DNA from: a virus | Lineage: Duplodnaviria > Caudoviricetes | Strand: one strand, 5' to 3' | Virus record (IMG/VR): IMGVR_UViG_3300036852_000533 | Span: 1 to 52,184 of that record | DNA: 52,184 nt | Part shown: positions 2,024 through 15,402 of the stretch, piece after piece | Numbering within the stretch: the stretch's first letter is position 1 | Layout of the letters: each line of letters begins with the position of its first letter | Notes under the pieces: model-generated | Database searches by the model: none | Seen by the model: only the letters and a program-made list of their open reading frames with translations | What the model was told of the DNA's origin: nothing | Position numbers and translations under genes: made by a program

Positions 2024-3033
2024 GCTTTCAAAAGTGCCAAATCGTCGGGGTGAACATCTCACCGACGACGTACCATCAACCTCAGAAACACGAGCGCGGG
2101 TCGCCGGAGTTTGTCATGTCTCAATCCGCACTTAAATCCTTCGGAAAATGCCCAAGCAAATGGAAGGACGGCGCCGAGGAGGATGACACCGCTTCAATGG
2201 CGTGGGGCAACTTGGTTGACACGCTCGTTCTCACGCCACAGTTGTTCGCCGAACGCTATGCCATCCGACCCGAGACGTACAAGGATGAGAAGGGCAACGT
2301 GAAGGACTGGCATCCGAACTCCAACACCTGCAAGGCGTGGTTGGAAGCCTGTCACAAGTATGGTCGAGAGGCCATCAGCCGGGGCAAAGAATCCGAGGCG
2401 TCCAAGGCAGTTCTCAGATTGAAGCGCGACGTTCGCATTGCCGCGTTCTTGGCGGTCTGCAAGTTCCAAGTCGAGTTGCGCGGCTTCTGGAAGGACGACG
2501 TGACCGGACTGGAGATACCCGTGCGCTGCCTTTTGGACGCCGTGCCAGAAGGTGACAGTGAATTCGGGAATGACCTTGGCGATCTAAAAACCTCCAAGGA
2601 TGTTTCGCTTTACACCTTCCGCAGGCAGGCTGTCCGGCTCGGATACCACATTCAATCCGCTTTCAGCTTGGACTTCTTCAATGCTGCCAGTGGGCAGCAG
2701 CGCAACCAATGGCGATTTCTCTTGCAGGAGAGTGATCCGCCGTACCAGACGGGCCGGCGCATTTGCACGTCCTACGAGAACCCGCAGGATGCACCACCGC
2801 AGAACTTCATCCAGTTCGGGCGCGACGAATACAAGCGGATGATGCGGAACTACTGCATCTGCCTCAAGGCGGGCGTGTGGGGCGATTTCGATACGACCGA
2901 CGAAAGCGTAGAGGGCTGGAGCGTGCTTGAAGCCGACCCATGGGCCGTGAATGACGCCCTGTTCGCCCCCAAATTCCAGTTGCCCGAGAGTGCGGAGGAT
3001 TTACGGGTCAATGTGGAGGAGATCACACCATGA
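2020..3033 (+). CDS. RecE/exonuclease VIII-like PD-(D/E)XK nuclease (DUF3799-like)
   Basis: SQSALKSF..CP, MAWGNLVDTLVL, RCLLD..DLKTS and GYHIQ motifs; near the SSAP gene. Confidence 0.8.
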   Translation: MSFQKCQIVGVNISPTTYHQPQKHERGSPEFVMSQSALKSFGKCPSKWKDGAEEDDTASMAWGNLVDTLVLTPQLFAERYAIRPETYKDEKGNVKDWHPNSNTCKAWLEACHKYGREAISRGKESEASKAVLRLKRDVRIAAFLAVCKFQVELRGFWKDDVTGLEIPVRCLLDAVPEGDSEFGNDLGDLKTSKDVSLYTFRRQAVRLGYHIQSAFSLDFFNAASGQQRNQWRFLLQESDPPYQTGRRICTSYENPQDAPPQNFIQFGRDEYKRMMRNYCICLKAGVWGDFDTTDESVEGWSVLEADPWAVNDALFAPKFQLPESAEDLRVNVEEITP

Positions 3034-3254
3034 TGACACCATTTACTCAGATAAAATCACAACAGTTTCGCATCTACGAATTAGAACAAGAACGCGACGC
3101 CCTCCGACAAAAACTTAGAACTTGCATGGAAGAAAAAGGCGGGGTCACAGCCAATTACCTTAAGTGCCAGAACGATTTCAATGTCCTGAAACAACAAGTC
3201 GCCGCAATGCGAAAGGATAAACCGTGGAAACAAGAATCATTTACAACTGGCTGA
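3030..3254 (+). CDS. Small coiled-coil hypothetical protein
   Basis: ATGA-coupled to the exonuclease gene; heptad-like sequence. Confidence 0.6.
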   Translation: MMTPFTQIKSQQFRIYELEQERDALRQKLRTCMEEKGGVTANYLKCQNDFNVLKQQVAAMRKDKPWKQESFTTG

Positions 3255-3640
3255 TCGGAGGCTATTGGCCAGGCACCATTACGAAGCGCGGCCTCACAAT
3301 CTGGATGGGCTACTACTTCAACCACGATACGCTCCGCGGACGCTTCTCCTACTGGCTTCTCAACCTCGATTGCGCCATGCGTCGTTCTCCGCACGACCTG
3401 AAATTATGGCTGGCCGACCAGCTTTCACGCGCGGCCATGCGCTTGCGGGGCGAAAAGGTGAGTGTTTTTGGATTCTACGATTACGCCAAGGGCAATCGCG
3501 CTGCGCAACTGTGCGATGCCGTGGATTTTGACCATTGTCTCAACTGGTCGAATGACGAGGCTGACATGATCGAGGAAAACCGGGCCAGACTCCAGGAACT
3601 TGCGAGCCTTGCGGGAGCGACCTGGAGAAGCAACCCATGA
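3224..3640 (+). CDS. Hypothetical protein
   Basis: In operon; AGGA RBS before GTG. Confidence 0.6.
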   Translation: METRIIYNWLIGGYWPGTITKRGLTIWMGYYFNHDTLRGRFSYWLLNLDCAMRRSPHDLKLWLADQLSRAAMRLRGEKVSVFGFYDYAKGNRAAQLCDAVDFDHCLNWSNDEADMIEENRARLQELASLAGATWRSNP

Positions 3641-3753
3641 AACCCATCGCCAGCTTCTGCCTCGTCATCTTCATCGCCTTATGTGTGGCAGCGTTCGCTG
3701 CCGTCACGCTGGCGGCCATTTACTTCTTGGCGACGATCTTCAGCCAGTCCTAA
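3637..3753 (+). CDS. 38-aa single-TM membrane peptide (below the ORF-track cut-off)
   Basis: MKPIASFCLVIFIALCVAAFAAVTLAAIYFLATIFSQS; ATGA overlap with the upstream gene. Confidence 0.55.
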   Translation: MKPIASFCLVIFIALCVAAFAAVTLAAIYFLATIFSQS

Positions 3754-3788
3754 AAAGTAAATCCCGCCAGCCCTTTCGGACTGACGGG
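3752..3788 (-). terminator. Intrinsic terminator for 3810..4457
   Basis: Minus strand CCCGUCAGUCC-GAAA-GGGCUGGCGGG, 11-bp stem with GU pairs, followed by AUUUACUUUUU. Confidence 0.8.
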
Positions 3789-3809
3789 AGCACTTGGAAA
3801 AATTCCCGG

Positions 3810-4457
3810 TTATGGCGTTCTAGGATTGATCGTCACCGTACCATCGGGAGACACAGAGACGGAATTGGTCTGTCCGCCCACGCGCACGAGCGAAGCATTG
3901 CCCCAAGGCGTGACCGCCTTGACCGCTACAATGGCGGGGTCATTCTTCAATTCGCGCGCCAGCTTGCCCAAGCCAGCCGTTGAGCAGCCGGTGAGCGTCA
4001 TTGAAGCAGTCCCGAGCGAGAGCGCGCCGACCAGAAACCACAGACCCACTTTTCCACTGCCTGAAATAACATCTTGATCAAGGAGCGGATTCTGTTTCAC
4101 GAGAGCTTGGTGTCCCCACGTCGCCAATCCGCCCATGACGGCGCCAACATCGCCGCTGCCAGTCCAATAACCGGCTTTTCCGCCAATGTAATCAAGCAGT
4201 GCGCCAATCACCGGGCCGCACCAAGGCAGCGCGGCATCGGGCACGAACTTCAACCATTTCTTTATGGCCATTACGAGCGCGCCGATAACTGGCACGAACA
4301 GGAACTTCCACGCGCTGAATCTGGCCACAAGGTCGTGAATCTTTTGATCGGTCGCGTTCAGTTCCGGTGGCGCATTGGAGACGGTCTGCGCCAGAACCGT
4401 AAACGCGAGTGCGAAAAGCGGGATGAGGACGAGAAACCAGCGGATGTGATTCTTCAT
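3810..4457 (-). CDS. Membrane protein: N-terminal signal/TM, holin-like core, C-terminal lipobox segment
   Basis: VPVIGALVMAIKK..VPDAALPW..VIGALL..GAVMGGLATWGH resembles small 3-TM phage holins; a later hydrophobic stretch ends in LTGC. Confidence 0.6.
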   Translation of the reverse strand: MKNHIRWFLVLIPLFALAFTVLAQTVSNAPPELNATDQKIHDLVARFSAWKFLFVPVIGALVMAIKKWLKFVPDAALPWCGPVIGALLDYIGGKAGYWTGSGDVGAVMGGLATWGHQALVKQNPLLDQDVISGSGKVGLWFLVGALSLGTASMTLTGCSTAGLGKLARELKNDPAIVAVKAVTPWGNASLVRVGGQTNSVSVSPDGTVTINPRTP

Positions 4458-4463
4458 GCCTTG

Positions 4464-4492
4464 GTTTTACGCCGATTGCAAAAATCGTGCAA
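4464..4492 (-). promoter_or_regulatory. Sigma70-like promoter, probably leaderless, for 3810..4457
   Basis: TTGCAC-17 nt-TAAAAC, then 6 nt to the ATG; overlaps a TTGCA..TGCAA palindrome. Confidence 0.55.
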
Positions 4493-4597
4493 GAAAAAGC
4501 TTGCGTGTTGTTTATTAACTGTTAAACATGCATAAGTGATCCGCAGCCGCAGCCGCAGCCACGGCGAAATTTGTCAGCCGTCAGCCATCATGTGTCT

Positions 4598-4882
4598 ATG
4601 AACGCGACAATCTATTTCATCTACGAACTGGAAGCCGCGAGAAGCTTCTCGTGCAAGAACACCGTCGAGGACATCGAGGGAGAAATCCGCTACTGGCTCG
4701 GCAAGAGTCCAGGAATGTTCAAAGACCAGCTCAGGGAAATCGTCGTCGTGCCGGATGACCAGAAGAAGGACTGGATGTATGTGCTCCAAAAGCTGGAGGA
4801 CGAACAATCCGAGGCTGAGGAACGCCATCGCCTCAAAGCCGAGAAACGCGAATATGACCGGCTGAAGGCGAAGTATGGCTAA
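4598..4882 (+). CDS. Hypothetical protein
   Basis: ATG at 4598; stop lies in the degenerate core box GGCTAAT. Confidence 0.65.
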   Translation: MNATIYFIYELEAARSFSCKNTVEDIEGEIRYWLGKSPGMFKDQLREIVVVPDDQKKDWMYVLQKLEDEQSEAEERHRLKAEKREYDRLKAKYG

Positions 4883-5723
4883 TGACCAAGCTCAAGCAAT
4901 GACCACCGGACCCACAACGACCACTGAACTACCGGCGATCCCGCCGTTGGCTGGGCGGACTGATTCGACTGATTCTCGTCCGAATCATAAAACACTCGTC
5001 AGGAAATCCGCCGCATGGCTGCGCAACCGGAAAAATTGCAATGTGGTGTTCGCGGAACTGGCGACGCAAAATAACGAGACGCCGGATGTCATCGGCTTCC
5101 ACGGTGCCGGCGGATCAATACTCGTGGAATGTAAAACCAGCCGCGCCGATTTCCTCGCGGACAAAAACAAAATCTTCCGGCACCACGAGGAAATGGGAAT
5201 GGGCGATGCGCGATACTTCGCCGCACCCAAAGGACTGCTCAAGCCGGACGAACTCCCGGAAGGATGGGGGCTGCTGGAAATTACTGACGCTGATGGCAGA
5301 ACCTACGAAACCAAACAGGCGACTTACAAGGAGGCGAACAAGCGTGCCGAGGTCAAGATGCTCATGTCGGCAATTCGCCGTCTGGAAATCTCGACGGCAG
5401 TGTTCGTGCGCGCCGAGGAGGAGAACAGTGCGCGCCCAGACATGGTGGCGCGATGGGCGAAAATCTGCCACGAAGCACACGACCGCGATGAAGCATGGAT
5501 AGCCATGCTCCGCCGCGAAGGAATAAAAGCCGCGCACCCTGACGACGGCTGGGTGGACAGGGAGAATAACACCGTCCACTTCGCGTATCCGCAATTCAAT
5601 GATGGCGCTGGCATCGGTGACAAAATCGCTCTCGGCTGGGCATCCGACAAATGGCGCATCGTGACAATCACGGGCCGGGCCGATGGGCTGCTATTAGAAC
5701 GTTGGGCCTTTTCGTCGAACTGA
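4875..5723 (+). CDS. PD-(D/E)XK / MmcB-like nuclease domain fused to a second unknown domain
   Basis: ETPDVIGF..ILVECKTSRADFLAD..GMGDARYF..ELPEGWGLL in the N-half; unrelated C-half begins at MVARWAK. Confidence 0.65.
   Translation: MANDQAQAMTTGPTTTTELPAIPPLAGRTDSTDSRPNHKTLVRKSAAWLRNRKNCNVVFAELATQNNETPDVIGFHGAGGSILVECKTSRADFLADKNKIFRHHEEMGMGDARYFAAPKGLLKPDELPEGWGLLEITDADGRTYETKQATYKEANKRAEVKMLMSAIRRLEISTAVFVRAEEENSARPDMVARWAKICHEAHDRDEAWIAMLRREGIKAAHPDDGWVDRENNTVHFAYPQFNDGAGIGDKIALGWASDKWRIVTITGRADGLLLERWAFSSN
4877..4969 (-). repeat. Degenerate attC
   Basis: GGCTAAT-GACCAA-GCTCAAGC resembles the left arm at 8985; right arm TTG-GCTGGGCG-GACTG-ATTCGAC; both cores mutated and stem weak. Confidence 0.45.
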
Positions 5724-5829
5724 TAACATCATGGGAAAGATTGCAACAAAAGCTCTGAGCTTCCGTGAGCGCCGCGCCGAATTCTCGACGCGCATCATGG
5801 CGAATGGCCGGCAGAACGCGCGATAAGTT

Positions 5830-6045
5830 ATGAAACTGGTAAACGCCGGCGACAGAGTGGCGGAAGCCTCATTCGCCCCAGCGTCCGAACTACCAACCAG
5901 CATGAATGGCCGATGCCCTCACTGCAACGACTGGACATGGGAACGGCTGTGGGGTGCTCTTGTCCAATGTCTTCAATGCGGGAGGCGCTACTACCACCGG
6001 GGCTGCGAACGGCGAATGCAGCACGACGACAAGCTGAGGCACTGA
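5830..6045 (+). CDS. Small Zn-ribbon-like protein
   Basis: CPHC...CLQC. Confidence 0.55.
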   Translation: MKLVNAGDRVAEASFAPASELPTSMNGRCPHCNDWTWERLWGALVQCLQCGRRYYHRGCERRMQHDDKLRH

Positions 6046-6049
6046 GGCG

Positions 6050-6340
6050 ATGCAAACGAAAATTTTACTCTGCAAGAAATGCGGAAAATATCTGGACGTA
6101 TGCAAATGCGCAGGGGCAAAGCCTCAGTTGCATCCAACGGGTGTTATGCGGCCACACCATAGAAAGAATATAGTACGCGAAGCAAAATCTGAGATCGAGT
6201 GGTGTAAGGATCAGATTGCGCTGACTCAACTCGGCGGTGAAACAAAGCCATACACGCGAGCCGAATGGATAGTCTGTATGAATCGAAGAATCGAGGCGAA
6301 TCAACAAATACTCAAAAAGCACAATGCTCTGGCCGCATAA
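6050..6340 (+). CDS. Cassette-derived hypothetical protein
   Basis: Segment 6143-6341 bounded by the 12-bp inverted pair GTTATGCGGCCA / TGGCCGCATAAC; stop in the core box. Confidence 0.65.
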   Translation: MQTKILLCKKCGKYLDVCKCAGAKPQLHPTGVMRPHHRKNIVREAKSEIEWCKDQIALTQLGGETKPYTRAEWIVCMNRRIEANQQILKKHNALAA

Positions 6341-6347
6341 CGAACCC

Positions 6348-6929
6348 ATGACAAAAAAAGAATGTATCATCAAAGCCTGTCAGGTAATCCGCAAGCGGGT
6401 GCGCTTCGATGGCGCGTCAATCTCGCTGCCGACGACTCCGTTTCCGGGTAATGACACGAAGGCAATCCGTGAGGCAACGCGCCTCTACGTGGAATCGTGG
6501 ATCGTGCCACTACTCGACTCCATCGAATCCGGCGACATGACCCGGATCCGACAATACTACGAATTTGAGAAGGGCCACAAAATGGAGTCGCCCAACGTAA
6601 AGGTGGGCGGTCAGAGTGGGCGCGAGAATATGAAAAATGAAACTCCGAGAAGCGATGCTGCCGAAGAACGAACACGGCTGAACTACGAGATGTCTCGCGA
6701 GTGCGGCGACCCGCCATATCCCGGTGCTGACATGGCAGACTTTGCTCGTGGGCTGGAACGCGAACTGAATGAGGTGCTGGCGGTGTTCCGCCACCGGCAT
6801 GTGAACAACGGCGAGAATGATGGCTGTAAAAAGTGCGGCCTCGATCTGCGCCACGAGATACATGAGCGCGTGGCCGCGCAGCCCAACGGCCCGGATGAGC
6901 GGCCCGGCGCTAACACCCCAAAACTCTGA
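6348..6929 (+). CDS. Hypothetical protein, probably two genes in frame (second start at 6630) joined across an attC remnant
   Basis: GCCCAAC-GTAAAG-GTGGGCGG half-site at 6590 precedes an internal MKNETPRSD start. Confidence 0.55.
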   Translation: MTKKECIIKACQVIRKRVRFDGASISLPTTPFPGNDTKAIREATRLYVESWIVPLLDSIESGDMTRIRQYYEFEKGHKMESPNVKVGGQSGRENMKNETPRSDAAEERTRLNYEMSRECGDPPYPGADMADFARGLERELNEVLAVFRHRHVNNGENDGCKKCGLDLRHEIHERVAAQPNGPDERPGANTPKL

Positions 6930-6991
6930 CATGCAAAACGACCTTCTAACTGCTGACGCTCCGCCGGGTTCACACCAGCGCATGGTTGTGC
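6881..6991 (-). repeat. attC site (intact cores)
   Basis: GCCCAAC-GGCCCG-GATGAGC-GG-CCCGGCG ... CGCCGGG-TTC-ACACCAGC-GCATG-GTTGTGC. Confidence 0.75.
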
Positions 6992-7004
6992 CCATACTAC
7001 CGAC

Positions 7005-7319
7005 ATGCACACAAACGAAAAACTAATCTTCGAGGAAATTACAAATCCGAATGTCCTGCCAAAACTCAAGCTGGATGTCGTGGAATGTCCCGACTGTCAC
7101 CACCGCATTGCAGTGCCGGTGAAATATACTGACTGGCAAGAAACCGCTGAACGCTATCGGCGCGCATACGAAGCAATGATGACCAAACTCGGCGTGCTGC
7201 TCAAAGAGGCCGGTGAACAATTCGACGTGCCGTTGGTGGAATACTTCGACACCGAACGGCAACTGATGATCCAAATGCTCAACGAAATAATCGCTGGACT
7301 CGATAAACGCGATGAATAG
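7005..7319 (+). CDS. Cassette-borne hypothetical protein
   Basis: Bounded by GTTGTGCC (6985) / GGCACAAC (7319); CPDC motif. Confidence 0.7.
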   Translation: MHTNEKLIFEEITNPNVLPKLKLDVVECPDCHHRIAVPVKYTDWQETAERYRRAYEAMMTKLGVLLKEAGEQFDVPLVEYFDTERQLMIQMLNEIIAGLDKRDE

Positions 7320-7454
7320 GCACAACGCCCGAACTGAGCGACCGGAGGCGAAACATGAATAGCGATATACGCATGATGAATGTGGAGGATCAGCAAGACC
7401 TAAAAACTTTCGAGCAGGACGAGCCTCCAGTTCGCTCCAGTGAGCTTTTTAGAT
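7320..7454 (-). repeat. attC site with mutated R'' core
   Basis: GCACAAC-GCCCGA-ACTGAGC-GA-CCGGAGGC ... GCCTCCAG-TTC-GCTCCAGT-GAGCTT-TTTAGAT (GTT changed to TTT). Confidence 0.7.
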
Positions 7455-7729
7455 GCGTCGAAGTATCAAGTCAACTAAAAGACAATCTGACCGTGATGAA
7501 ACGGCTAATCGGCGACAAATGGCAAGAGTCGTCGAAGGAATATCGGGTCATCCTGCTCGCAGTGATGGCCGCAAGCGGAGACACCAACCCGCTAGGCTGC
7601 GCGATACCGATGGCAAAGGAAATGTCCGAACGAGGACACAGCCCGCTCATGCTGCTGGCCGTCGCAACGGAAATGAGCGAAGCATCTGACGTAGAGCGCA
7701 GCGACGGCGCTCAGAAAGACTCACGATGA
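7355..7729 (+). CDS. Cassette-borne hypothetical protein
   Basis: GGAGG RBS and ATG inside the attC; stop inside the next attC. Confidence 0.7.
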   Translation: MNSDIRMMNVEDQQDLKTFEQDEPPVRSSELFRCVEVSSQLKDNLTVMKRLIGDKWQESSKEYRVILLAVMAASGDTNPLGCAIPMAKEMSERGHSPLMLLAVATEMSEASDVERSDGAQKDSR

Positions 7730-7774
7730 AAAAGAAAACACAACAGCGCCGTTCGCTGCCGCGACGGGCTATGA
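7684..7774 (-). repeat. attC site with both cores mutated
   Basis: ATCTGAC-GTAGAG-CGCAGC-GA-CGGCGCT ... AGCGCCG-TTC-GCTGCCGC-GACGG-GCTATGA. Confidence 0.65.
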
Positions 7775-7980
7775 CTCCGAAGGGTTGGCGGCGACTGCTC
7801 GTGGGAGAGATGACCAGAAAAGGCGACTGGCTGGAAAATGTCGGAGATGGTCCGTGGACACGTCTGCGCGTCCGTTACTGCCTTAAAGAAGTAGAAGGTG
7901 ATTGGCGTGCCATCATCCGCCGGACGACCTCTCGCAAAAGGAGTCCTAACGCAGACTTCAGACACCCCGCCACACCATGA
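7726..7980 (+). CDS. Cassette-borne basic hypothetical protein
   Basis: Start in the attC loop with ATGA overlap; ends GCTATGACTCC / GGAGTCCTAAC are imperfectly complementary. Confidence 0.6.
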   Translation: MKKKTQQRRSLPRRAMTPKGWRRLLVGEMTRKGDWLENVGDGPWTRLRVRYCLKEVEGDWRAIIRRTTSRKRSPNADFRHPATP

Positions 7981-8023
7981 CTACCGAACTTAAAATGACG
8001 CGCGATGGCGGGGTTGTCTGGAC
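7944..8023 (-). repeat. Truncated attC (R'' lost)
   Basis: TCCTAAC-GCAGAC-TTCAGACA-CCCCGCCA ... TGGCGGGG-TT-GTCTGGAC; no GTT core follows. Confidence 0.6.
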
Positions 8024-8031
8024 TCTCTAAC

Positions 8032-8322
8032 ATGAACGCAACATATCCAACCGTCGAAGAGCAGGAGAAACTAGAACCTGCCAGAACTGTGCCCCGCTGT
8101 CGTGAATCGCAACGCTGGCTGAAAGAAGCCGACAAAATCATCGCGGCATACCCGGAGAAACACCGCGAGTATCACGCAATGGTGCTGCGGCATACCTACG
8201 AGAACGGGCTGTATGACACGAACTGTGCAATCAAATCTCTCATGGCGATAAAGGAACTCATCATCAAGGGTGAATACTCTGACGAGCGCGTGCTGGAACT
8301 GATAAACGAAGGGCTGCAATGA
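8032..8322 (+). CDS. Hypothetical protein
   Basis: ORF in the coupled early operon. Confidence 0.65.
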   Translation: MNATYPTVEEQEKLEPARTVPRCRESQRWLKEADKIIAAYPEKHREYHAMVLRHTYENGLYDTNCAIKSLMAIKELIIKGEYSDERVLELINEGLQ

Positions 8323-8522
8323 ATCTCGTGATGCTCATAGAAGAAGGATGCCGGGAAGTCTATGTGAACCCGGAAAGCGTCGAGTCAGTCCAAAATGCCG
8401 CAGGCGGAAAAGACTCCATCTTGTATCTGAAAACCGGGCGAAAGCTGATAGTCACCGGGTCAAGTGGCGATGTAATGTGCAAACTCAAAGGCATACGCTC
8501 GTGGAGAGACGCCCTGAAATGA
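8319..8522 (+). CDS. Small beta-rich hypothetical protein (FlbD-like pattern)
   Basis: VYVNPESVESV..SILYLKTGRKLIVTGS..DV resembles FlbD-like small proteins. Confidence 0.5.
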   Translation: MNLVMLIEEGCREVYVNPESVESVQNAAGGKDSILYLKTGRKLIVTGSSGDVMCKLKGIRSWRDALK

Positions 8523-8692
8523 AAACCTACACTGCCGAAGATTTCAAACGCTGGGGCGCGAAGGGCGGTGCAAAGTCCAAGCGTGTGCTGACCAAAGCAC
8601 AGGCCAAGGCGATGGTCGCCGCACGGGAAAAGAAACTTCGGAAAACCAAGCGCGTGGCCCGGCGTGCTAACGCAGAGGTCAGCCATGAGTGA
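8519..8692 (+). CDS. Small basic KGG-motif protein
   Basis: FKRWGAKGGAKSKR; very Lys/Arg rich; stop inside the attC. Confidence 0.65.
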   Translation: MKTYTAEDFKRWGAKGGAKSKRVLTKAQAKAMVAAREKKLRKTKRVARRANAEVSHE

Positions 8693-8762
8693 CGCGCCCG
8701 CGACATCCGAATCCACGCAAACCGTCAACGCGGCACTCATTGGCTGCACCGACGGGTTAGGC
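8665..8762 (-). repeat. attC site (intact)
   Basis: TGCTAAC-GCAGAG-GTCAGC-CA-TGAGTG ... CACTCA-TTG-GCTGCACC-GACGG-GTTAGGC. Confidence 0.82.
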
Positions 8763-8990
8763 GCACGGGATTGGAAGGCATACCGGCGCATCTGGAACAA
8801 GACGCACCCTGAAAGCATCAAGTCAGCACAGAAAAAACTGAGAACCAAAAAACATGAACAAGGCGAAATCGTCAACCAAGCCGAGTGCAAATGCACCGTA
8901 TGCAAAAGCGTCTTCAACCGCGATGACGCGCACCTGCGGGGATACCGATTCCTGTCGCGCTTCGTATGCGTGTGCGACGAGTGCGCCTAA
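8685..8990 (+). CDS. Cassette-borne Zn-finger-like protein, paralog of 1383..1697
   Basis: GLGAR...KHE.G...KC..C..VF.R..AH.RG.R...C.CDECA shared with 1383..1697; ends GTTAGGCGCAC / GTGCGCCTAAC. Confidence 0.75.
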   Translation: MSDAPATSESTQTVNAALIGCTDGLGARDWKAYRRIWNKTHPESIKSAQKKLRTKKHEQGEIVNQAECKCTVCKSVFNRDDAHLRGYRFLSRFVCVCDECA

Positions 8991-9110
8991 CGACCAAGCT
9001 CAGCGACCTGTGCCGGAGACAGGCGTTGAGCGGAAAGGAAACGATGAATGAACCAACAGCGGTCGTGCGTGAAAAGCGCGGCACAGGTTCTCTGGAGCGC
9101 ATGGTTAGGT
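8985..9110 (-). repeat. attC site (intact)
   Basis: GCCTAAC-GACCAA-GCTCAGC-GA-CCTGTGCCG ... CGGCACAGG-TTC-TCTGGAGC-GCATG-GTTAGGT. Confidence 0.85.
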
Positions 9111-9373
9111 GTGCGTCGTGCAAATACTGGGGAACTAAACCCGGTGAACGCGGCAATCCTCGCCTGCGGTCCTGCAACCATCCAAAGCATGTGATGGGAT
9201 ACCAGTCCGCCGCCGCCGTGCCAGATGACGGAATGATAATCGAATCGGATGAGGGATGGGGCATCGAAGTTGGGCCTCTCTTTGGGTGCGTGAATGGTGA
9301 GGCGAGCACACCTAACGGTGCGCTATGCGACGGGGATGAGCCGCCGCAGACGTTGAAATCGAAACAATCGTGA
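9044..9373 (+). CDS. Cassette-borne Cys-rich hypothetical protein
   Basis: AAGGA RBS and ATG in the attC loop; CASCKYW...GPLFGCV; ends GTTAGGTGTGC / GCACACCTAAC. Confidence 0.75.
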   Translation: MNEPTAVVREKRGTGSLERMVRCASCKYWGTKPGERGNPRLRSCNHPKHVMGYQSAAAVPDDGMIIESDEGWGIEVGPLFGCVNGEASTPNGALCDGDEPPQTLKSKQS

Positions 9374-9410
9374 ACGGCTCATCCCCGTTCGCTGCAGCGC
9401 ATGGTTAGGC
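9310..9410 (-). repeat. attC site (intact)
   Basis: ACCTAAC-GGTGCG-CTATGC-GA-CGGGGATGAGCCG ... CGGCTCATCCCCG-TTC-GCTGCAGC-GCATG-GTTAGGC. Confidence 0.87.
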
Positions 9411-9436
9411 GACTGGAATAATTTTTGGAATAATTT

Positions 9437-9649
9437 ATGAACGAGAAAGAGCAAACCGATCACTTCGCCAACGATGTGGACAACCTGGTAGAACGTTACC
9501 GGAGCGAATACGAGATGAGCTACGCCGCCGTCGTGGGCGTGCTCCAAATGAAAATCCATCTACTGTGCGACGAAGCATCGGAGCGTGGTGATGAAGTCGC
9601 CCAACGTCCGCATAAGCGATGGCGGACACGAGACGTGAAAATTAACTGA
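9437..9649 (+). CDS. Cassette-borne hypothetical protein
   Basis: Ends GTTAGGCGACT / AGTCGCCCAAC; C-terminal tail encoded by the next attC. Confidence 0.7.
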   Translation: MNEKEQTDHFANDVDNLVERYRSEYEMSYAAVVGVLQMKIHLLCDEASERGDEVAQRPHKRWRTRDVKIN

Positions 9650-9687
9650 CGGCATCGCCCGCCATTCGCTTCATGCGGTGGTTAGGC
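9599..9687 (-). repeat. attC site (intact)
   Basis: GCCCAAC-GTCC-GCATAAGC-GA-TGGCGG ... CCGCCA-TTC-GCTTCATGC-GGTG-GTTAGGC. Confidence 0.85.
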
Positions 9688-9708
9688 ATCCGTCGAACCA
9701 ACAAAAAC

Positions 9709-9924
9709 ATGATACATATAATCGAATCCTTCGCCTGCGGACTCGCGTTCGCAATGGGAATAACCTCGTGGTTCTTCATCCGCGACTTGGCGACCGTGAA
9801 AGGTCGCGAAGAACTGAAAAAAGAAATGCACGAACACGCCAAGCGCGTCGAGGACAGGCTGGCTGTCCAAGTCTCGACGATGCTTGTCTGTCTCGACGAA
9901 ATCAAGAAGCGCAAGGATGCCTAA
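9709..9924 (+). CDS. Cassette-borne small membrane-anchored protein
   Basis: N-terminal TM then coiled coil; ends GTTAGGCATCC / GGATGCCTAAC; stop in the core box. Confidence 0.7.
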   Translation: MIHIIESFACGLAFAMGITSWFFIRDLATVKGREELKKEMHEHAKRVEDRLAVQVSTMLVCLDEIKKRKDA

Positions 9925-10023
9925 CGAAAAAGCTGACCGATGAGAGGGAGCGCGCCAACGACGTTCGATTCGAGAGTGAGCCAAACGCGCTCCCTCTCAT
10001 TCGTGTCCAGCGCATTGTTCCCC
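9919..10023 (-). repeat. attC site (intact, belongs to the attI-proximal cassette)
   Basis: GCCTAAC-GAAAAG-CTGACC-GA-TGAGAGGGAGCGCG ... CGCGCTCCCTCTCA-TTC-GTGTCCAGC-GCATT-GTTCCCC. Confidence 0.85.
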
Positions 10024-10044
10024 GACTGGTCGAAAAAGAAAAGC

Positions 10045-10073
10045 TTGACACCACAAGCGGCTTGTGATACAAT
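10045..10073 (+). promoter_or_regulatory. Near-consensus sigma70 promoter with a palindromic operator in the spacer
   Basis: TTGACA-17 nt-TACAAT; spacer contains CACAAGC-G-GCTTGTG (10052-10066). Confidence 0.8.
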
Positions 10074-10083
10074 GCCAGTGAAG

Positions 10084-10461
10084 ATGAAAACTGAACTCAT
10101 CCAAATCGGGCTGACCGCCGCACAGGTGGACTCAGCGGACTGGCTACTCGGCTGCCCTCTCTTTTACGATGCCGCCGAATCACTCGCCCACAACTGGGAC
10201 GAGACACCGGAGCGCGCCGCCGCAATCGTGGCCGCTGCAAAACAAGTGAAGCGTGACGGGCGGACTCTGACGCTGCCAAACGACCATGAGGTAATCGAAT
10301 ACCTGCACCAATACGCCGAGCAACTGGCGGACATGAGCGCAAAGGAATACCTCGATGAACTCGTGGGCAAAGGCATCCCGCACCGTGAAGCTCAATGCAA
10401 GGTCAACGCCGCCGTGCGGTCTGCGGAATCGCTCGCGGAGAAAATCGCCTGCCACCTATGA
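10084..10461 (+). CDS. Hypothetical protein, first gene of the two-gene attI-proximal cassette
   Basis: ATG just downstream of the promoter; ATGA-coupled to the next gene. Confidence 0.7.
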   Translation: MKTELIQIGLTAAQVDSADWLLGCPLFYDAAESLAHNWDETPERAAAIVAAAKQVKRDGRTLTLPNDHEVIEYLHQYAEQLADMSAKEYLDELVGKGIPHREAQCKVNAAVRSAESLAEKIACHL

Positions 10462-10613
10462 ATCCCGAAGCTCGCAAATACCTCGCCAGCATCGGAAGCA
10501 AAGGCGGGAAGGCAACCGGGACAAGCAAGCGGCGTGGGTCTGCCGCCTACTACAAACGAATCTCAAAGCTCGCCGCGAAAGCACGAAAGGCGAAGTCGGG
10601 GAACTCTTATTAA
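10458..10613 (+). CDS. Small basic KGG-motif protein (possible DNA-binding regulator)
   Basis: YLASIGSKGGKATG..RG..YYKRISKLA; stop codon lies within the attI candidate. Confidence 0.7.
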   Translation: MNPEARKYLASIGSKGGKATGTSKRRGSAAYYKRISKLAAKARKAKSGNSY

Positions 10614-10616
10614 GCA
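10598..10616 (-). other. Candidate attI site
   Basis: Minus strand TGCTTAA-TAAGA-GTTCCCC (L box, 5 nt, R box) with no hairpin partner; AGTCGGGGAAC at 10594 is the perfect complement of the cassette's other end GTTCCCCGACT at 10017; immediately upstream of intI. Confidence 0.7.
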
Positions 10617-10626
10617 TCATCCACGC

Positions 10627-11601
10627 ATGTTTAAGGATAATTTCATAACGGTTGCCAGAGCACACGGGTTGCGACTCCAGACCGAACGCGCTTATTACGG
10701 CGCGGCAGCCAAGCATATTAAGTGGCTTGGAGCGAGGTCTGCAAAGGATTTGGAGCGTGATCCGACGAAACAATTCCGGGATTACCTCACCATGCTGGCC
10801 AATGTGAATGGCGATAGAAGCGAAGGCGACGAAGGCATTTCAGCTTCCAGCCAGAATTTGGCATTTCACGCATTGAGATTTCTCTACGAAAAAGTAATCG
10901 GCATCCAGCTTGGAGACCTTTCAAACATTCCGCGCGCAAGCGGGCACGAAAGAATTGTGGATGTGCCCCCTGACGATGTGGCGATAAAACTCGTGCAATC
11001 AGTGCCGGGCGTTAACGGAGTCGCGCTGCGCTTGATCTATGGCACTGCCGGACGGCTCAATGACATTCTGAGATTGCGAGTTAAGGATTTGGACTTCCGC
11101 AGGAAACTCGTGAGCGTGCAGGAGAGCAAGGGTGGTAAATCACGCCTCGTCCCAATGCCGCCTAGTCTGATTCCAGAACTTTCCGCGCTGGTAAAGGAGC
11201 GGGAAAGGATTCACGAGGCAGACTTGGCGGACGGATTTGGGTGGGTTCACATGCCGGGGATGCTGGCCAAAAAATATCCTGGAGAGGAAAACTCGCCCGG
11301 CTGGCAGTACCTGTTCGCATCAGCAACACTTTCCAAAGACCCCATCAGCGGAAAAACGGGGAGGCATCATATCTTTGACGTGACATTGCAACGTGCCTTC
11401 GCCAATGCGCGGCGGAAGTTGCGAATCAAACGGCACTACACTATTCACGGACTCCGCCACGCTGCGGCTCAATGGATGGAGCGCAACGGGGTGACGCGCT
11501 CAACGATTCAGGAAATTCTCGGGCACGAAAATTCGAGTACGACCGACCGTTATCTCCTATCTGGGAAACGCAGCGTGGCGAACGTGCCGACGCCAATCTA
11601 G
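10627..11601 (+). CDS. intI: Integron integrase (IntI-family tyrosine recombinase)
   Basis: N-terminal SAM-like domain (TERAY..SASSQNLAFHALRFLY); catalytic R (GRLND), K (SKGGK), HGLRH, LGH, Y (TTDRY); IntI-specific insert GWVHMPGMLAKKYP..GWQYLF...SKDPISGKTGRHH. Confidence 0.92.
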   Translation: MFKDNFITVARAHGLRLQTERAYYGAAAKHIKWLGARSAKDLERDPTKQFRDYLTMLANVNGDRSEGDEGISASSQNLAFHALRFLYEKVIGIQLGDLSNIPRASGHERIVDVPPDDVAIKLVQSVPGVNGVALRLIYGTAGRLNDILRLRVKDLDFRRKLVSVQESKGGKSRLVPMPPSLIPELSALVKERERIHEADLADGFGWVHMPGMLAKKYPGEENSPGWQYLFASATLSKDPISGKTGRHHIFDVTLQRAFANARRKLRIKRHYTIHGLRHAAAQWMERNGVTRSTIQEILGHENSSTTDRYLLSGKRSVANVPTPI

Positions 11602-11864
11602 GGATGGTTTGTCGCCGACGGATGAAAGTGAGCGACCTCCATGCGAACGGCATCAAGTTTGTTCTCCAAATCCATCATGTGCCGCCATTGCGCCGCACGG
11701 GCGTCCTTTTCATCCTGCCGATGCTGGTTGAAGTGGTCACTGGTTACGAATAACTGATAAGCTAAAACGAGGGATAACCCACCGCCGGCAGCCGTGGACA
11801 CTTTCCCCTTGTGCTTATCAGCAATGTTGCGCGTCCGCTGAAGCAATGTGGTGTCGCCGCTCAT
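11598..11864 (-). CDS. Small single-TM coiled-coil protein (possible lysis accessory)
   Basis: TM AAGGGLSLVLAYQLFV then coiled coil; last gene of the late operon. Confidence 0.5.
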   Translation of the reverse strand: MSGDTTLLQRTRNIADKHKGKVSTAAGGGLSLVLAYQLFVTSDHFNQHRQDEKDARAAQWRHMMDLENKLDAVRMEVAHFHPSATNHP

Positions 11865-11866
11865 AT

Positions 11867-12259
11867 TTAATTTATTAGTGGTTTATGACGCTTGATTGTA
11901 GGTGGATTCATCAATTTGTGATTCGCTATGGCTGACAACCAAGCAGCAAGTGTTCGTGTGTCTTTTTGTAAACTCTTATCTTCTTCGATTTTTTCGCACT
12001 GAGAAAGCAGCGCTCCCCAATCCTCAAAAGTCAATTCATAGTTCCTGTCAAGATATTTGTCCAGTAACGCATCTATGTTAAGGTGGTCATCAGGACTATG
12101 TAACAACTTCGCAGCTTTTTGTCCAAACAACGCCATCACTGCTTCAAGACGTGTAACTCGCTCACTCATTTTCCCGTGTGCGTTAATAGCACTGACTGCA
12201 AAGACAAGAAAAACACTCGCAAAACCACCAAGCAACCACAATGTAATTGATTCAGTCAT
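11867..12259 (-). CDS. N-terminal TM protein (possible lysis accessory)
   Basis: ITLWLLGGFASVFLVFAV then SERVTRLE; AT-richer than neighbours. Confidence 0.55.
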   Translation of the reverse strand: MTESITLWLLGGFASVFLVFAVSAINAHGKMSERVTRLEAVMALFGQKAAKLLHSPDDHLNIDALLDKYLDRNYELTFEDWGALLSQCEKIEEDKSLQKDTRTLAAWLSAIANHKLMNPPTIKRHKPLIN

Positions 12260-12301
12260 TTAGTAAACGGATGTTCTGGGTGACTTGGTTCGTGCTCAGT
12301 T

Positions 12302-14152
12302 TCATTTCGAGTGTTGCACCACGAACGGCGCGCTCAAAGCTGTCGTCGTGGCTGAACCGCCGTTGGCGTGATCCAGGTCATCAAAATAGATGGTGTTTCG
12401 GAATCCACCCACGCTTGCCACATGCCCCGCCGAATCCACGGCGATTGCACTGCCACTGGTGGGGGCCGCGCCGCCTGCCCGCTTCACCCATCGGCTTGCG
12501 CCCGTGCTGTTGGCGCTGGCGATGAAATAGGTGGCATTTCCGCTTAGAAATGTGTTTGGAGCGAAGGAAACAAATGACGTAAGCTGGCCGGTGTAGAAGA
12601 TATTTCCGCTGCTGTCCACCGTCACGGAAACACCCAAGTCCCCTGCTCCATAGCCGTAACCGGGAATGTTTGGAGTTCTGGCCCACAAGTAATTTCCACT
12701 CACATCGTACGCCGCAAGAAACAGGCCGCCATCGTTGTTGGCTGTGCCGTCATAATATGCCACCACCGGGCCTCCCACGGATGAGGAAGCACGATAATTC
12801 CCCGTGGCGATGATATTTCCGGTGATCGGGTCAGCGGCAACAGCCTTGATGCCGTCGTCTGAAGGACTACCTCTTGGCTTGAACCATTTGCACAGCCCGT
12901 CCGATCCTGAAAATTTTACCAGAAACACGTCGTAACCCGCACTGACCACACTCTGGCCACACAGATTGACCGTGCCATTGTATCCTCCACACAGGACTGC
13001 ATCTCCGAACTTGTCAATGGCCAGAGCACTCGGGCTGTTTAGAATCAAGGACGATGAGGAAAACCCTTTGGCCCAGAGCGCCGTGCCGTTATTACTGGAT
13101 AGCTTGGCGACAGCGATGGCATTACCGGGACCGGTGTTGGCGACGGTAAAGCTGTCAAACACCATTCCAGTGCCGACAAACTGACAGGCAACAAACACGT
13201 TGCCGCTTCCATCCAATGACACGCCTTTGCCTCCTGAACTGGATGACGAACCAAAGCGTCTCGCCCAGATGAGAGTGCCCGGAACACCGGAAGTGCCGGG
13301 AGAATATTTGGCGACATACGTATCGGTGGAGGCCACTGCCGTCAGCGGTGTGCCGCCGAAGTCCACCGTGCCTGAAAAGAATCCACAGACGATAATGTTC
13401 CCGGTTGAGTCCGTGGCCACACCCGTCACATCTTCATTGTAGATGCCGCCGAGGCGCTTCGCCCAAAGCAGACCGCCCTGGGAGTTGTATTTGACAACGA
13501 AAATGTCCGTTCCGCCCGCTGATTCCAGATGAGTGTTTCCGAAATCAACGTAGGGAGCGAACGCACCGGAGGAGATGACGTTTCCATTGGCATCAGCGGC
13601 CACGGCAGTTGGGCTGGCGTTCGCGTTAAGCACGCCGATACCAACCCATCTGAACGTTCCCGGAACGGGCGCATTGGTCGGCCTGGCCACGACGCGATAA
13701 ACCATCATACTGTTCGTGCGTGGGAGTTGCAGGACGTTTGTGCTGTTGGTCGGTGGATACACTGATGAAGCTTGTAACCATGTTGCGCCGCTGGGAACCA
13801 CTGTCGGTTTGCTCTCGATGAAACTCTCGTAACTATTGGTCGCCGTCCATTTCAGGACGACGGTGTTCGAGCTTTTCGTGATGAAAATGGCGGCGGGATA
13901 TGAACCGAGCGGTGTTGTCGGAACTGGTGGAGGTTGTGCGGCGACCATTGCAGCAATCTGATTCGTGGTCGGCACATAATAGTTCTTCGTCGGATCAATT
14001 GCGGCCGTGCTCACCATCGGCTTGTTGAGCGTGTCGGCGCTGGCCGCGTCCTTCGGGCTGCGGACTTTGGCGTTCAATGGCAGCACAAGCATCATCACGC
14101 ACGCCGCAAGCAGCGTGAGGGCCAGAATCTTTTCCTCGGTGCGCCAGTTCAT
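12302..14152 (-). CDS. Secreted-type beta-propeller (SBBP-like repeat) protein
   Basis: Repeated VAxDxxGN..G.F..TVDFG..DxFVVKY..G..LWAK blades; N-terminal signal-like segment; start reassigned to 14152. Confidence 0.75.
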   Translation of the reverse strand: MNWRTEEKILALTLLAACVMMLVLPLNAKVRSPKDAASADTLNKPMVSTAAIDPTKNYYVPTTNQIAAMVAAQPPPVPTTPLGSYPAAIFITKSSNTVVLKWTATNSYESFIESKPTVVPSGATWLQASSVYPPTNSTNVLQLPRTNSMMVYRVVARPTNAPVPGTFRWVGIGVLNANASPTAVAADANGNVISSGAFAPYVDFGNTHLESAGGTDIFVVKYNSQGGLLWAKRLGGIYNEDVTGVATDSTGNIIVCGFFSGTVDFGGTPLTAVASTDTYVAKYSPGTSGVPGTLIWARRFGSSSSSGGKGVSLDGSGNVFVACQFVGTGMVFDSFTVANTGPGNAIAVAKLSSNNGTALWAKGFSSSSLILNSPSALAIDKFGDAVLCGGYNGTVNLCGQSVVSAGYDVFLVKFSGSDGLCKWFKPRGSPSDDGIKAVAADPITGNIIATGNYRASSSVGGPVVAYYDGTANNDGGLFLAAYDVSGNYLWARTPNIPGYGYGAGDLGVSVTVDSSGNIFYTGQLTSFVSFAPNTFLSGNATYFIASANSTGASRWVKRAGGAAPTSGSAIAVDSAGHVASVGGFRNTIYFDDLDHANGGSATTTALSAPFVVQHSK

Positions 14153-15402
14153 TGCGGATGCCAGACCATGATTGGAGTTGCCACGCTGTAAGTGATCGTT
14201 GTCCATTCTCCCGGTTGGAGCGGAATCGTGTGATCGCCAGAAACCAGCGTTCCGAAAATGGCCGCGCCGTTCAGATTTACCGCCGTGGTCGCGCCGTTGG
14301 CGTCGAGAAATACATTCACGTTTTTGGTGAGCGTGTTCGTCCAATTAAATGGAGATGCGGTAACACTGATACTCGTTGAGGCCAGTTGGTTGGAGGCGTA
14401 GGAAGCGACACCATTCGTTACATAAATCTGTTGTTGCAAATGAAGGTTGCTAAGGAGCAACGAACACGTCACTTCGCCGGAGTTCACAATCCTGCCGATA
14501 TTCACCGCACTTGGCTCAAGACCGATTTGGGTTGACCCACTTCGCGGCACGAAGAATCCATTGCCGGTGTAGGAGTAACCCTGAACATTCAAGTCTCCAG
14601 TCGCCACATAGGCAGTGGGGACTTGGAGATTGCCGCTGAGATTGGTCTGCCCGCCGTTCGTCAGGCAGAGGGTGATTTTCGTGACGGTATTTGTTCCGGC
14701 GGTGAAGGTATGAGTGTTGGTGTTGATTGCGACCCACTCGAACGGCGCTACGGGATTGCTAGACAAAAGGAATGAGAAAGAGTTGGCGTTCGTGAGAAGC
14801 GGCCCAGGCGGGAGTGCGTTCACCTGAGCGAAAGTGGTGGCCGTGCCATCGGCGTCAATCGGGACTGCGCCGCTGGCGGTGGCATTGGCGATACCACGAG
14901 CACCGTCTCCAACTTGCACACGGCCACTAGTGAGCGTGGCGTTGTTGGTGGTCAGCGTCGCGCCGGTGACGTTGCCGACGGGGATGCTGGGCGACACTCC
15001 GTTGGTGGAAACCGTCCGTCCGTCCGCACTGACGGTAATGCCGCTGCCAGCCGTGACGGTGTTGGACATTCCCGCGCCGTTGCCGGTGAAGCTGCCGGAC
15101 CAACTGTTGCTCGGGTTGATGCGGGCGGTGGGGACGGTGCCGCTGGCGAGGGCGGAGGCGTTTAGATCGGTCAGGCCCGCTCCGTTGCCGATGAAGTTGG
15201 TGGCCACAACGCTGTCTGCGGACAGCGTTCCCAACACAACAAGATTAGTGGTCAACGCGTCAGACTTGATTCCCAGCTTGGAAGTTCCGGTCGTTCCGTA
15301 AAATTGATTGGTGTCAAATGACTGGAAAGAAGGATTGGCCCCAAAGGCTGAAAGGGAAAGTAATAGCGCGCCGAGTATCGAGAATTGAATGAATGATTTC
15401 AT
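14149..15402 (-). CDS. Fibre-like Thr/Asn/Gly-rich protein with a signal-peptide-like N-terminus
   Basis: F.GNGAGLT.LNAS.L.SGTVP.ARI motif typical of trimeric fibres; MKSFIQFSILGALLLSLSAFG. Confidence 0.6.
   Translation of the reverse strand: MKSFIQFSILGALLLSLSAFGANPSFQSFDTNQFYGTTGTSKLGIKSDALTTNLVVLGTLSADSVVATNFIGNGAGLTDLNASALASGTVPTARINPSNSWSGSFTGNGAGMSNTVTAGSGITVSADGRTVSTNGVSPSIPVGNVTGATLTTNNATLTSGRVQVGDGARGIANATASGAVPIDADGTATTFAQVNALPPGPLLTNANSFSFLLSSNPVAPFEWVAINTNTHTFTAGTNTVTKITLCLTNGGQTNLSGNLQVPTAYVATGDLNVQGYSYTGNGFFVPRSGSTQIGLEPSAVNIGRIVNSGEVTCSLLLSNLHLQQQIYVTNGVASYASNQLASTSISVTASPFNWTNTLTKNVNVFLDANGATTAVNLNGAAIFGTLVSGDHTIPLQPGEWTTITYSVATPIMVWHPQ

Follow-up and report, generated by a model that had tools for sequence, protein, structure and literature searches.

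Can the recombination site of an integron cassette also be the place at which translation of the cassette gene begins? The question is raised by IMGVR_UViG_3300036852_000533, a Caudoviricetes record whose 52,184 nt, analyzed here in full and referred to as the window, carry direct terminal repeats and have an estimated completeness of 100, and thus represent a complete phage genome. From the start of the record to 11601, the + strand bears a single tightly packed gene run that encodes an Erf-type annealing protein, an exonuclease VIII-like protein (2020-3033), approximately 20 small open reading frames (ORFs) and, in the last position, a tyrosine recombinase; we take this order to resemble that of the lambdoid early-left operon, which ends in int. 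A preliminary description had reported attC hairpins containing start codons in this run. Integron papers regard attC as an untranslated site behind its gene, and its mRNA hairpin as a brake on the next gene. In the window, attC has canonical geometry yet lies ahead of the gene; its coding-strand copy is translated, often contains the start and the first 15-30 codons of the next gene, and provides at least two gene families with their start codon and leader. We consider it likely that the early operon of this phage is an integron with reversed cassettes, in which the inner part of attC acts as an exchangeable start module. The data establish the sites themselves, how they are oriented and which strand is coding and, in the case of two gene families, a start within attC.

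A strict search for RYYYAAC...GTTRRRY with at most two mismatches detected just three sites of the array and was replaced by a hidden Markov model of the 3' arm and then by R1, a covariance model built from 16 aligned sites of five contigs (the window and four other viral contigs). When the whole window was searched with R1, with filters off and a threshold of E<0.01, 12 attC-like matches were obtained, seven of them outside the training set, all on the + strand and all within 1688-10027. Elsewhere in the window (the other 42 kb) the best match reached 11.9 bits, and array sites read on the - strand reached at most 14.1 bits; weak places of about 13 bits lie at 1342-1458 and 2244-2350. The sites display the hallmarks of attC, including RYYYAAC and GTTRRRY boxes (R' and R''), L boxes, an unpaired spacer, bulged bases on one arm and a variable loop. 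Their consensus alignment contains 17 pairs, 11 of which show changes on both sides, and 90.6% of its cells are paired, compared with 70.6% in shuffles (0 of 500 reach the observed value) and 25-42% after displacement of the partners by 1-3 columns. Single-site DNA folds are weak at 1340-1470, 1685-1800, 6895-6995, 7316-7460 and 7680-7790 (z +1.05 to -0.66), all but the first of which were later supported by R1. A search of Rfam returned no matching family, its sole match being a chance hit to miR156 (E 0.34).

The boxes are also related from site to site. In nine chained pairs the GTT box of one site and the AAC box of the next are 10-base complements (seven perfect, two with one mismatch), all at distances of at most 588 nt, and the other 41.6 kb contain two perfect 10-mer GTT/AAC pairs at such a distance. 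This is the footprint that would be expected of cassettes formerly closed as circles at their own R boxes. Similar sites occur outside the window: a scan with a 14-base pattern gave 119 loci among the matches listed, mostly chance, with R1 sites in 17 of the first 100 and in 5 of the other 20. Together, the 17 of 100 loci and 11 of 28 further loci represent at least 27 distinct other contigs, and the sites within a locus share one strand, save for a single match in contig L054.

The array ends at an integrase gene. This gene, intI (10627-11601, + strand), has its best start at ATG 10627, in frame with GTG 10534 of the ORF list. Its product scores 230.9 bits, or 231.4 bits in a second record of the match, against the integron integrase family TIGR02249 of NCBIfam, below the curated cut-off of 265; TIGR02249 is nevertheless its best family by far, well above any Xer model, and the next non-IntI family reaches 82.6 bits. 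The best match of known structure is VchIntIA of Vibrio cholerae (2a3v; phmmer, E 6.2e-35), with residues 71-323 aligned to 63-316 and a single one-residue gap. Integron integrases are distinguished from Xer proteins by an additional segment between patches II and III, and the alignment to 2a3v shows this segment (...KYP...W.YLF...S.DP.S...RHH...) in the phage protein. PHROG scans of 29 and 39 ORFs of the window turned up no second integrase, and a search of viral contigs with IntI found no relative.

The last full site is followed by one cassette and then by a lone R'-type junction, GTCGGGGAA/C (10595-10604, + strand). This junction matches the R'' box at 10017 as a perfect complement, has no hairpin behind it and is best read as the putative cassette/attI junction. 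Only 23 nt separate it from the intI ATG, and 10592-10670 is without a fold. Lone RYYYAA/C junctions precede the intI ATG elsewhere by 39 nt (contig L062), 29 nt (L077) and about 100 nt (L121), so that the AA/C layout beside intI is found in three phages (the window, L062 and L077) and one metagenome-assembled genome (MAG). At the far end of the array, no attI candidate was seen. The MAG contig, L121, whose title names Verrucomicrobiota, carries a relative of the window's ORF 7355 whose end is GCATCTAA/C; a chromosomal intI starts about 100 nt further on, with housekeeping genes behind it. The contig begins within that gene, whose end (in 1-1400) is 91% identical to the end of ORF 7355 and is joined at the junction to the upstream side of intI; the L121 intI is 32% identical to the phage gene and has an in-frame TAG at 1031. 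Judging by these features, the joint would be either a shared cassette that occupies the first position or one end of a prophage integrated at attI. The last cassette ORF crosses the AA/C junction in both L062 (3099-3392) and the window (10460-10614), stopping at the intI ATG in the former (TAAATG) and 12 nt before it in the latter, and intI may thus be translationally coupled to the last cassette. A different arrangement is found in L026 (77-4046), where a partial intI precedes five attC sites of the same strand, the first about 1.6 kb downstream.

The preliminary description placed six start codons, at 1718, 6931, 7355, 7726, 8685 and 9044, inside attC hairpins. All six indeed lie within sites recognized by R1, four of which are outside the training set, but only five open real genes, with ORFs of 84-124 codons. 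The start at 6931 opens a bridging frame of 31 codons (6931-7026, + strand). It is separated by 1 nt from the stop of ORF 6324-6929, its reading frame differs from that of gene 7005-7319, and its end lies 20 nt beyond ATG 7005. A comparable bridging frame of 14 codons (1337-1381, + strand) begins with an ATG that overlaps the erf stop (ATGA) and ends with a TAA 1 nt before ATG 1383; it lies in the weak attC-like site at 1342-1458 on the + strand (13.2 bits, E 0.25), which has a GTTAGGC box at 1448.

The sites, all on the + strand, can be followed along the operon. The first (1688-1801; 50.9 bits; R' 1692-1698, R'' 1791-1797) holds ATG 1718 at its loop boundary, where the cassette ORF 1718-2023 begins 20 nt after the upstream TAA, with no Shine-Dalgarno (SD) sequence seen. 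The site at 6017-6153 (21.4 bits; R'' at 6143) holds ATG 6050 of ORF 6050-6340, whose TAA falls in the box GCCGCATAAC; GTT 6143 and AAC 6341 form a perfect 10-mer complement. In the loop of the site at 6877-6995 (35.7 bits; R' 6881-6887, R'' 6985-6991) ORF 6324-6929 stops. The next site (7316-7458; 30.8 bits; R' 7320-7326) has an R'' box mutated to TTTAGAT (7448-7454) and holds ATG 7355, preceded 6 nt upstream by the GGAGG already pointed out (7344-7348). It is followed by a site with decayed boxes (7680-7778; 39.8 bits; AAC changed to GAC), whose loop contains the ATGA overlap of ORFs 7355-7729 and 7726-7980, and by a partial match (7958-8022; 19.3 bits; model positions 20-85 only) between ORF 7726-7980 and ORF 8005-8322. 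At 8661-8766 (59.9 bits; R' 8665-8671, R'' 8756-8762), the site contains an SD sequence AGAGG (8674-8678), ATG 8685 in the 5' half of the stem and the upstream stop at 8690-8692. The site at 8981-9114 (54.8 bits, not a training member; R' 8985-8991, R'' 9104-9110) has ATG 9044 in its loop, with the previously noted AAGGA at 9035-9039, 4 nt ahead of it, and an in-frame ATG 9101 just before the box. Upstream stops fall in the loops of the sites at 9306-9414 (56.6 bits; DNA fold z -6.5; R' 9310-9316, R'' 9404-9410; stop 9371-9373) and 9595-9691 (69.9 bits; R' 9599-9605, R'' 9681-9687; stop 9647-9649); the latter has ATG 9673 in its 3' arm and ATG 9709 after the site. In the last full site (9915-10027; 60.9 bits; R' 9919-9925, R'' 10017-10023), the upstream TAA (9922-9924) lies in the box and ATG 9940 in the 5' half of the stem.

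Four sites of this layout, at 4873-4973, 6017-6153, 7958-8022 and 9915-10027, are additional to those described before. The first of these (21.8 bits, E 0.0025) is decayed (AAC to AAT, GTT to ATT) and is read through by the first 33 or so codons of ORF 4875-5723, which encodes a 282-aa protein whose match to phrog_631 begins at residue 28; it may represent a former cassette joint absorbed into a core phage gene. Ten of the 12 sites contain a candidate start of the following ORF and all 12 contain the end of an ORF of more than 50 aa, and coding sequence of our own gene set accounts for 1060 of the 1337 site bases. Four upstream ORFs stop at the TAA of their own YYTAAC box (1697, 6340, 8990 and 9924). 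The peptides GSLERMVR and IGCTDGLGA, named in the preliminary description, are coded through the 3' arm and the R'' box.

Two gene families carry the argument that these starts are used. For ORF 7355-7729 (+ strand), a protein search returned 26 relatives, and 17 of the 27 proteins (query included) have a leader of 15-40 residues before a conserved V-R/Q-C motif (F-R-C in the window), the in-frame translation of the R'' box GTTAGRTGC. It is at this box that the conserved core sets in, which places the start inside attC; the core ends in ...E-A-S-N, corresponding to the R' box GCATCTAAC, and the tails diverge after that box. In six of eight metagenome loci with an ORF 7355-type gene, the coding strand carries an R1 site that extends as far as the core. 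In all seven DNA contexts (those six and the window) the attC loop contains an in-frame ATG, preceded in about 4-5 of the seven by an SD-like purine run, and in five of the seven no ATG, GTG or TTG lies between this ATG and the core. In the window, the next in-frame start after 7382 is 7493. Comparison with contig L083 shows just three changes, all synonymous, in the first 14 codons of the core. The second family is that of ORF 8685-8990 (+ strand), which has no in-frame start within 8685-8846, an attC-coded leader (MSDAP...GLGA) and its TAA in the next R' box; the leader is present in all five of its database relatives. Its paralogue, cassette ORF 1383-1697 (+ strand), likewise has its TAA in the next R' box, and ATG 1383 is its sole in-frame start in 1341-1538, so that neither ORF has a further in-frame start for about 150 nt. 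Judging from the sequences, translation of the ORF 7355 and ORF 8685 families must begin inside attC.

Might the ORF parts within the sites nevertheless be chance upstream extensions, with the true starts at or after the R'' box and attC an untranslated spacer? The sites would then be real and the translation illusory, which we regard as unlikely, although it is the alternative that survives best. Later in-frame starts are available for 9044 (ATG 9101), 9673 (ATG 9709), 9940 (ATG 10072 or 10084), 1718 (GTG 1799) and 7726 (ATG 7771). Genes 7005-7319 and 9437-9649 begin past their sites, 14 nt after the R'' box of 6877-6995 and 27 nt after that of 9306-9414, and in relatives two cassette genes with Pfam domains (GNAT and DUF7448) start 9-12 nt after the box. 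The loop-coded part of the leaders is, moreover, poorly conserved. Against this explanation stand the 7355 family, with its selected core beginning at the box and no start after the box in five of seven contexts, and ORFs 8685 and 1383, with no later start for about 150 nt. In addition, at 8 of 11 sites the gene frame stays open over 80 nt or more ahead of the GTT box, compared with 6 of 22 for the other two frames. A count of loci in which the longest ORF starts inside the site was dropped, as chance upstream open frames would bias it.

The second part of the question concerns which gene each site belongs to. In the attC sites described by Nivina et al. in 2016, the bulged bases on the bottom strand lie opposite AAC, at positions 16 and 23/24, the farther one being a conserved T, and the spacer has 5-6 bases. 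In the consensus of the window, the AAC arm forms an unbroken series of ten pairs, and the arm before the GTT box has two bulges, at positions 16 and 22/23, the second being a conserved T. As a control, R1 was applied to the class 1 integron of plasmid R100, where it found the attC of aadA1 at 47.6 bits on the intI1 strand, opposite aadA1, compared with 6.7 bits on the other strand. Since this match opposes aadA1, the sense strand of R1 is the canonical attC bottom strand, and the genes of the window therefore lie on the bottom strand of their sites. The position of the bulges opposite AAC, the R100 control and the AA/C junction next to intI are thus in agreement. They support an ordinary platform with reversed cassettes, in which the coding strand of each unit reads attC, gene and RYYYAA, and they bear out the earlier proposal that each attC stands 5' of its own gene.

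That this strand is the coding one is evident from several comparisons. Between the window (7451-7691) and L083, the + frame of ORF 7355 has 16 synonymous and 17 non-synonymous changed codons and no stop, and the other five frames show 1-11 synonymous changes, each with stops in at least one of the two sequences. Between 9438-9605 and L026, the frame of ORF 9437 shows 10 synonymous versus 4 non-synonymous changes. Two cassettes of relatives, one in L062 for a GNAT acetyltransferase and one in L083 for a DUF7448 protein (104.9 bits), are encoded on the R1 strand exactly between a GTT box and the complementary AAC box. A exceeds T on the R1 strand in all 14 arrays examined, as on proven coding strands; ORF coverage (0.82-0.98 versus 0.60-0.97) does not separate the strands. 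The cassette genes therefore run towards intI on the bottom strand, in contrast to usual integron cassettes, which are promoterless, run on the top strand, away from attI, and are driven by Pc. With intI lying 600 nt from the last attC, the array differs from a cluster of attC sites lacking integron-integrases (CALIN), and with intI on the R1 (bottom) strand, like intI1 in R100, it differs from integrons with an inverted integrase.

The preliminary description further proposed that start signals travel with the gene. This part holds only in a restricted sense. Close homologues of ORF 7355 share leaders (P0013 and L122; P0016, P0017 and L127), the tails after the AAC box of this family vary far more, and by polarity the attC ahead of a gene is part of that gene's cassette. 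However, the ORF 7355 core occurs behind at least six different attC inner parts or 3' arms. The conserved core of the cassette ORF 9044-9373 (+ strand), which begins at MVRCASCKYWG, occurs with three unrelated leaders, and its own leader is also found on an unrelated protein; its head, coded by attC 8981-9114, and its tail, coded by attC 9306-9414, are both exchangeable, the tail being found on three unrelated proteins. With hardly any change, the 8685 leader heads cores of 95, 47 and 44% identity as well as two unrelated proteins. Because leaders and cores occur in other combinations, the start signals are not strictly gene-bound. Blastn comparison of the array with other contigs gives matches of one module each, which is bounded by both boxes and may be the inner part of an attC or the core of a gene. 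For instance, the inner part of site 1688-1801 is 93% identical to L083 122-18, with different flanks, and that of site 9915-10027 is 90% identical to L100 2071-1968. As far as these comparisons go, the attC inner part is fairly described as a start module that can be exchanged, and not as one tied to a single gene. In runs X3 and X5, contigs match both loop flanks of site 7316-7458 and skip 66-71 bases (window 7350-7422), and therefore appear to come from relatives in which the loop, the place of the ATG and leader in the window, is shorter or a different one. Loose ends at 9410/9411 were considered as crossover evidence and set aside as uninformative, as they come from 25-50-base pieces of a 3' arm motif common to many sites.

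As an alternative, the polarity might be ordinary, with + as the top strand, each gene owning the attC that follows it, the crossover at G/TT in the 3' box and the start lying in the attC of the previous cassette. In its favor are the near-identical 8685 leader on diverged and unrelated cores, with divergence setting in after G/TTAG, the three unrelated leaders of the 9044 core and the more stable average fold of the - strand. We nonetheless consider this explanation improbable, more so than that of an untranslated attC, since the extra bases lie opposite AAC on the + strand, R1 matches the R100 attC on the strand opposite aadA1, the array ends at intI with a lone AA/C in the window, L062, L077 and L121 and has no attI candidate at its far end, and the 7355-family tails diverge right after A-S-N, i.e., GCATCTAAC. 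It is very improbable that the hairpins are conserved linker or RNA elements shuffled by general or Erf-type recombination rather than integrase substrates, since, although the modules are bounded by both boxes, the halves of site 8981-9114 match different contigs and the phage encodes Erf and an exonuclease, the sites have canonical attC geometry in detail, R1 built from them finds a class 1 attC, they adjoin an IntI with the IntI-specific segment, and R'' boxes complementary to the next R' box over 10-11 nt are the footprint of site-specific exchange.

The reading of the operon as an integron with reversed cassettes has to be weighed against several findings. Besides the later in-frame starts, the GNAT and DUF7448 cassettes and the integrase score below its cut-off, the following count against it. 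In L123 and L125, GTG codons beside the box are possible starts of the ORF 7355-type gene, and the gene calls in the window are longest-frame choices. The - strand of the sites is more stable by a mean of 3.3 kcal/mol and their G-C skew is near zero, so that neither of the two reported bottom-strand marks of mobile integrons is seen. Both boxes are mosaic breakpoints, for which a single crossover point alone is insufficient. According to Nivina et al. (2016), top-strand recombination is 10^3-10^4-fold lower; the two exchange points could stem from rare top-strand recombination, from exchange within the conserved 3' arm or from site homogenization. Lastly, no cassette excision joint was seen in the contigs of four runs.

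The preliminary description also suggested that the mRNA hairpin may conceal the ribosome-binding site until a ribosome arriving from the upstream gene opens it. In RNA folds of six sites, the SD sequence or AUG lies in the main stem at only three of them (7316-7458, 8661-8766 and 9915-10027), the buried signals being the SD of 7355, the AUG of 8685 and that of 9940, and in the loop at the other three (9044, 7726 and 1718). At 7355, the ATG itself is in the loop, its SD GGAGG is in the stem and the upstream stop lies 25 nt ahead of the SD. Since the upstream frame overlaps the start at 8685 (ATGAGTGA) and 7726 (ATGA), upstream ribosomes would have to open the stem there. The starts at 9940 and 1718 follow the upstream TAA by 15 and 20 nt, without an SD, a spacing that would suit re-initiation. 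Translational coupling across attC sites is thus plausible on these positions. A review of class 1 integrons (PMC8876359) describes attC stem-loops in mRNA that impede ribosomes, and short frames in attC or attI that relieve the block through termination and re-initiation; the suggested mechanism would thus have a known relative in this short-ORF system.

The operon could accordingly be pictured as follows. The early + strand transcript would lead from the Erf and exonuclease genes through the small genes to the integrase, the operon itself being an integron with a platform as in bacteria: the attC bottom strands and intI on one strand, and the cassette/attI junction just before intI. Each attC would be the joint between two cistrons. 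The upstream gene would terminate in the R' box (at the TAA of YYTAAC), the 5' arm or the loop, and the downstream gene would usually start at an ATG in the loop or 5' arm and continue through L'' and R'' into the conserved core. The phage early transcript would probably carry all hairpins, held open by ribosomes crossing one arm of each, and the closeness of stop and start codons would permit coupling or re-initiation. IntI would mobilize the cassettes.

More tentatively, and with some doubt, these elements might be joined into a broader scenario. A temperate phage lineage, linked to Verrucomicrobiota through one MAG contig, may have adopted a complete integron as a platform for exchanging its early-operon accessory genes, with the attC loops as portable start modules, and its IntI may also insert the phage. 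Reversed cassettes would have been selected so that the phage early transcript reads the cassettes and then intI, and the loop module, consisting of stop, ribosome-binding site, ATG and leader, would serve any core joined in frame at the R'' box. The same IntI reaction might insert the whole phage into a host integron (phage attC with host attI, or the reverse). Such insertion is suggested because IntI is the only integrase of the phage, and is hinted at by L121, in which a 7355-type cassette end is joined to the attI side of a chromosomal intI.

Compared with classical integrons, the phage element shares the IntI-specific segment and the site structure, with R and L boxes, an unpaired spacer, two bulges (16 and 22/23) and a variable loop; as in R100, the bottom strands lie on the intI strand and the junction beside intI. 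It differs in that the cassette genes lie on the bottom strand towards intI, so that no platform Pc promoter can drive them; in that attC precedes its gene and is mostly coding; in that only 23-39 nt separate the junction from the intI ATG in the phages; and in that the entire element lies within a phage operon. In a survey of 10,705 phage genomes from NCBI for integrons and attC (Qi et al., 2023; PMC9892861), the cases described are fragments of Vibrio arrays, a P1-type phage with class 1 integrons, a Shewanella prophage that is inactive and clusters without an integrase. As in the present case, phages with attC sites appear there, with integron integrases being rare. The terms "start codon" and "reverse" are absent from the text of that article, which is separate from supplements that may list gene orientations. 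The short ORFs of class 1 integrons such as ORF-11 (PMC8876359) resemble by sequence the phage frames 1337-1381 and 6931-7026. There, as the review describes it, the RNA is that of the top strand and the ORF is separate, in contrast to the phage, in which the gene itself usually has its start within the site, so that part of the protein is encoded there. Nivina et al. (2020; PMC7439510) reported that attC structure can be written into almost any sequence, and placed synthetic attC in coding sequence; those sites were engineered, and the window would be the natural case. In the inverted integron-integrase group, e.g., that of Treponema, intI and the cassette genes have the same direction as well, but in the accounts consulted (PMC3607928 and PMC4889954) it is intI that is turned (intI, attI, cassettes), in contrast to the phage, where the genes are turned (cassettes, attI, intI).

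In the literature searched, supplements aside, no description was found of attC bottom-strand genes that start in attC. What the present analysis adds is a complete phage genome that bears an integron integrase and junction, a control of polarity against a class 1 integron and family-wide evidence of starts in attC. A complete integron including its integrase is thereby placed in a complete phage genome, and the translated sites form a natural counterpart of engineered attC sites in coding sequence as well as one route to tight-operon expression of an array without a platform promoter. Provided that the sites are active, site-specific recombination enables phages of this group to swap individual small genes with one another as well as with the chromosomal integrons of hosts. 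In a census, standard tools may overlook such cassettes or assign them the wrong orientation, as the polarity of the gene disagrees with that of the site.

Several further features of the genome can be added. The erf gene (363-1340, + strand; PF04404 E 3.1e-10; phrog_155 E 4.2e-24) belongs to the same operon as the attC array. The phage-type genes of the window comprise terminase, DnaB-type helicase, resolvase, Erf and exonuclease; large structural-type genes, terminase, DnaB-type helicase and resolvase occupy the - strand from 12 to 50 kb. The runs carrying this stretch are labeled as soil and freshwater metagenomes. Of sampled words of 6800-10700, 62% are present in a second soil study, in fragmentary pieces with no letters differing from the window. 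Within the last cassette, a promoter-like site (10045-10073, + strand; TTGACA-17-TACAAT with TG) has 11 of 12 consensus matches, the best of six such sites in 1-12300. It lies upstream of ATG 10084, ORF 10460-10614 and intI, and this candidate promoter, judged by its consensus match, could allow intI expression independent of the long early transcript.

The paralogous cassettes 1383-1697 and 8685-8990 both end in ...CDECA with the TAA in GCGCCTAAC, both read G-L-G-A-R through the R'' box and are most alike in DNA at the two boxes; the pair was considered as a marker of the cassette boundary and proved too diverged to fix it. The small lysine-rich ORFs 8519-8692 and 10460-10614 share a G-x-K-G-G motif, and in a contig of run X2 position 10507 is connected to 8599 through 30 letters of different sequence, which may point to a hybrid or a third copy. 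Just beyond intI, the - strand encodes an SBBP (beta-propeller) repeat protein of 680 aa (12302-14344), and a gene for a GroES-like co-chaperonin lies at 22063-22350 on the same strand.

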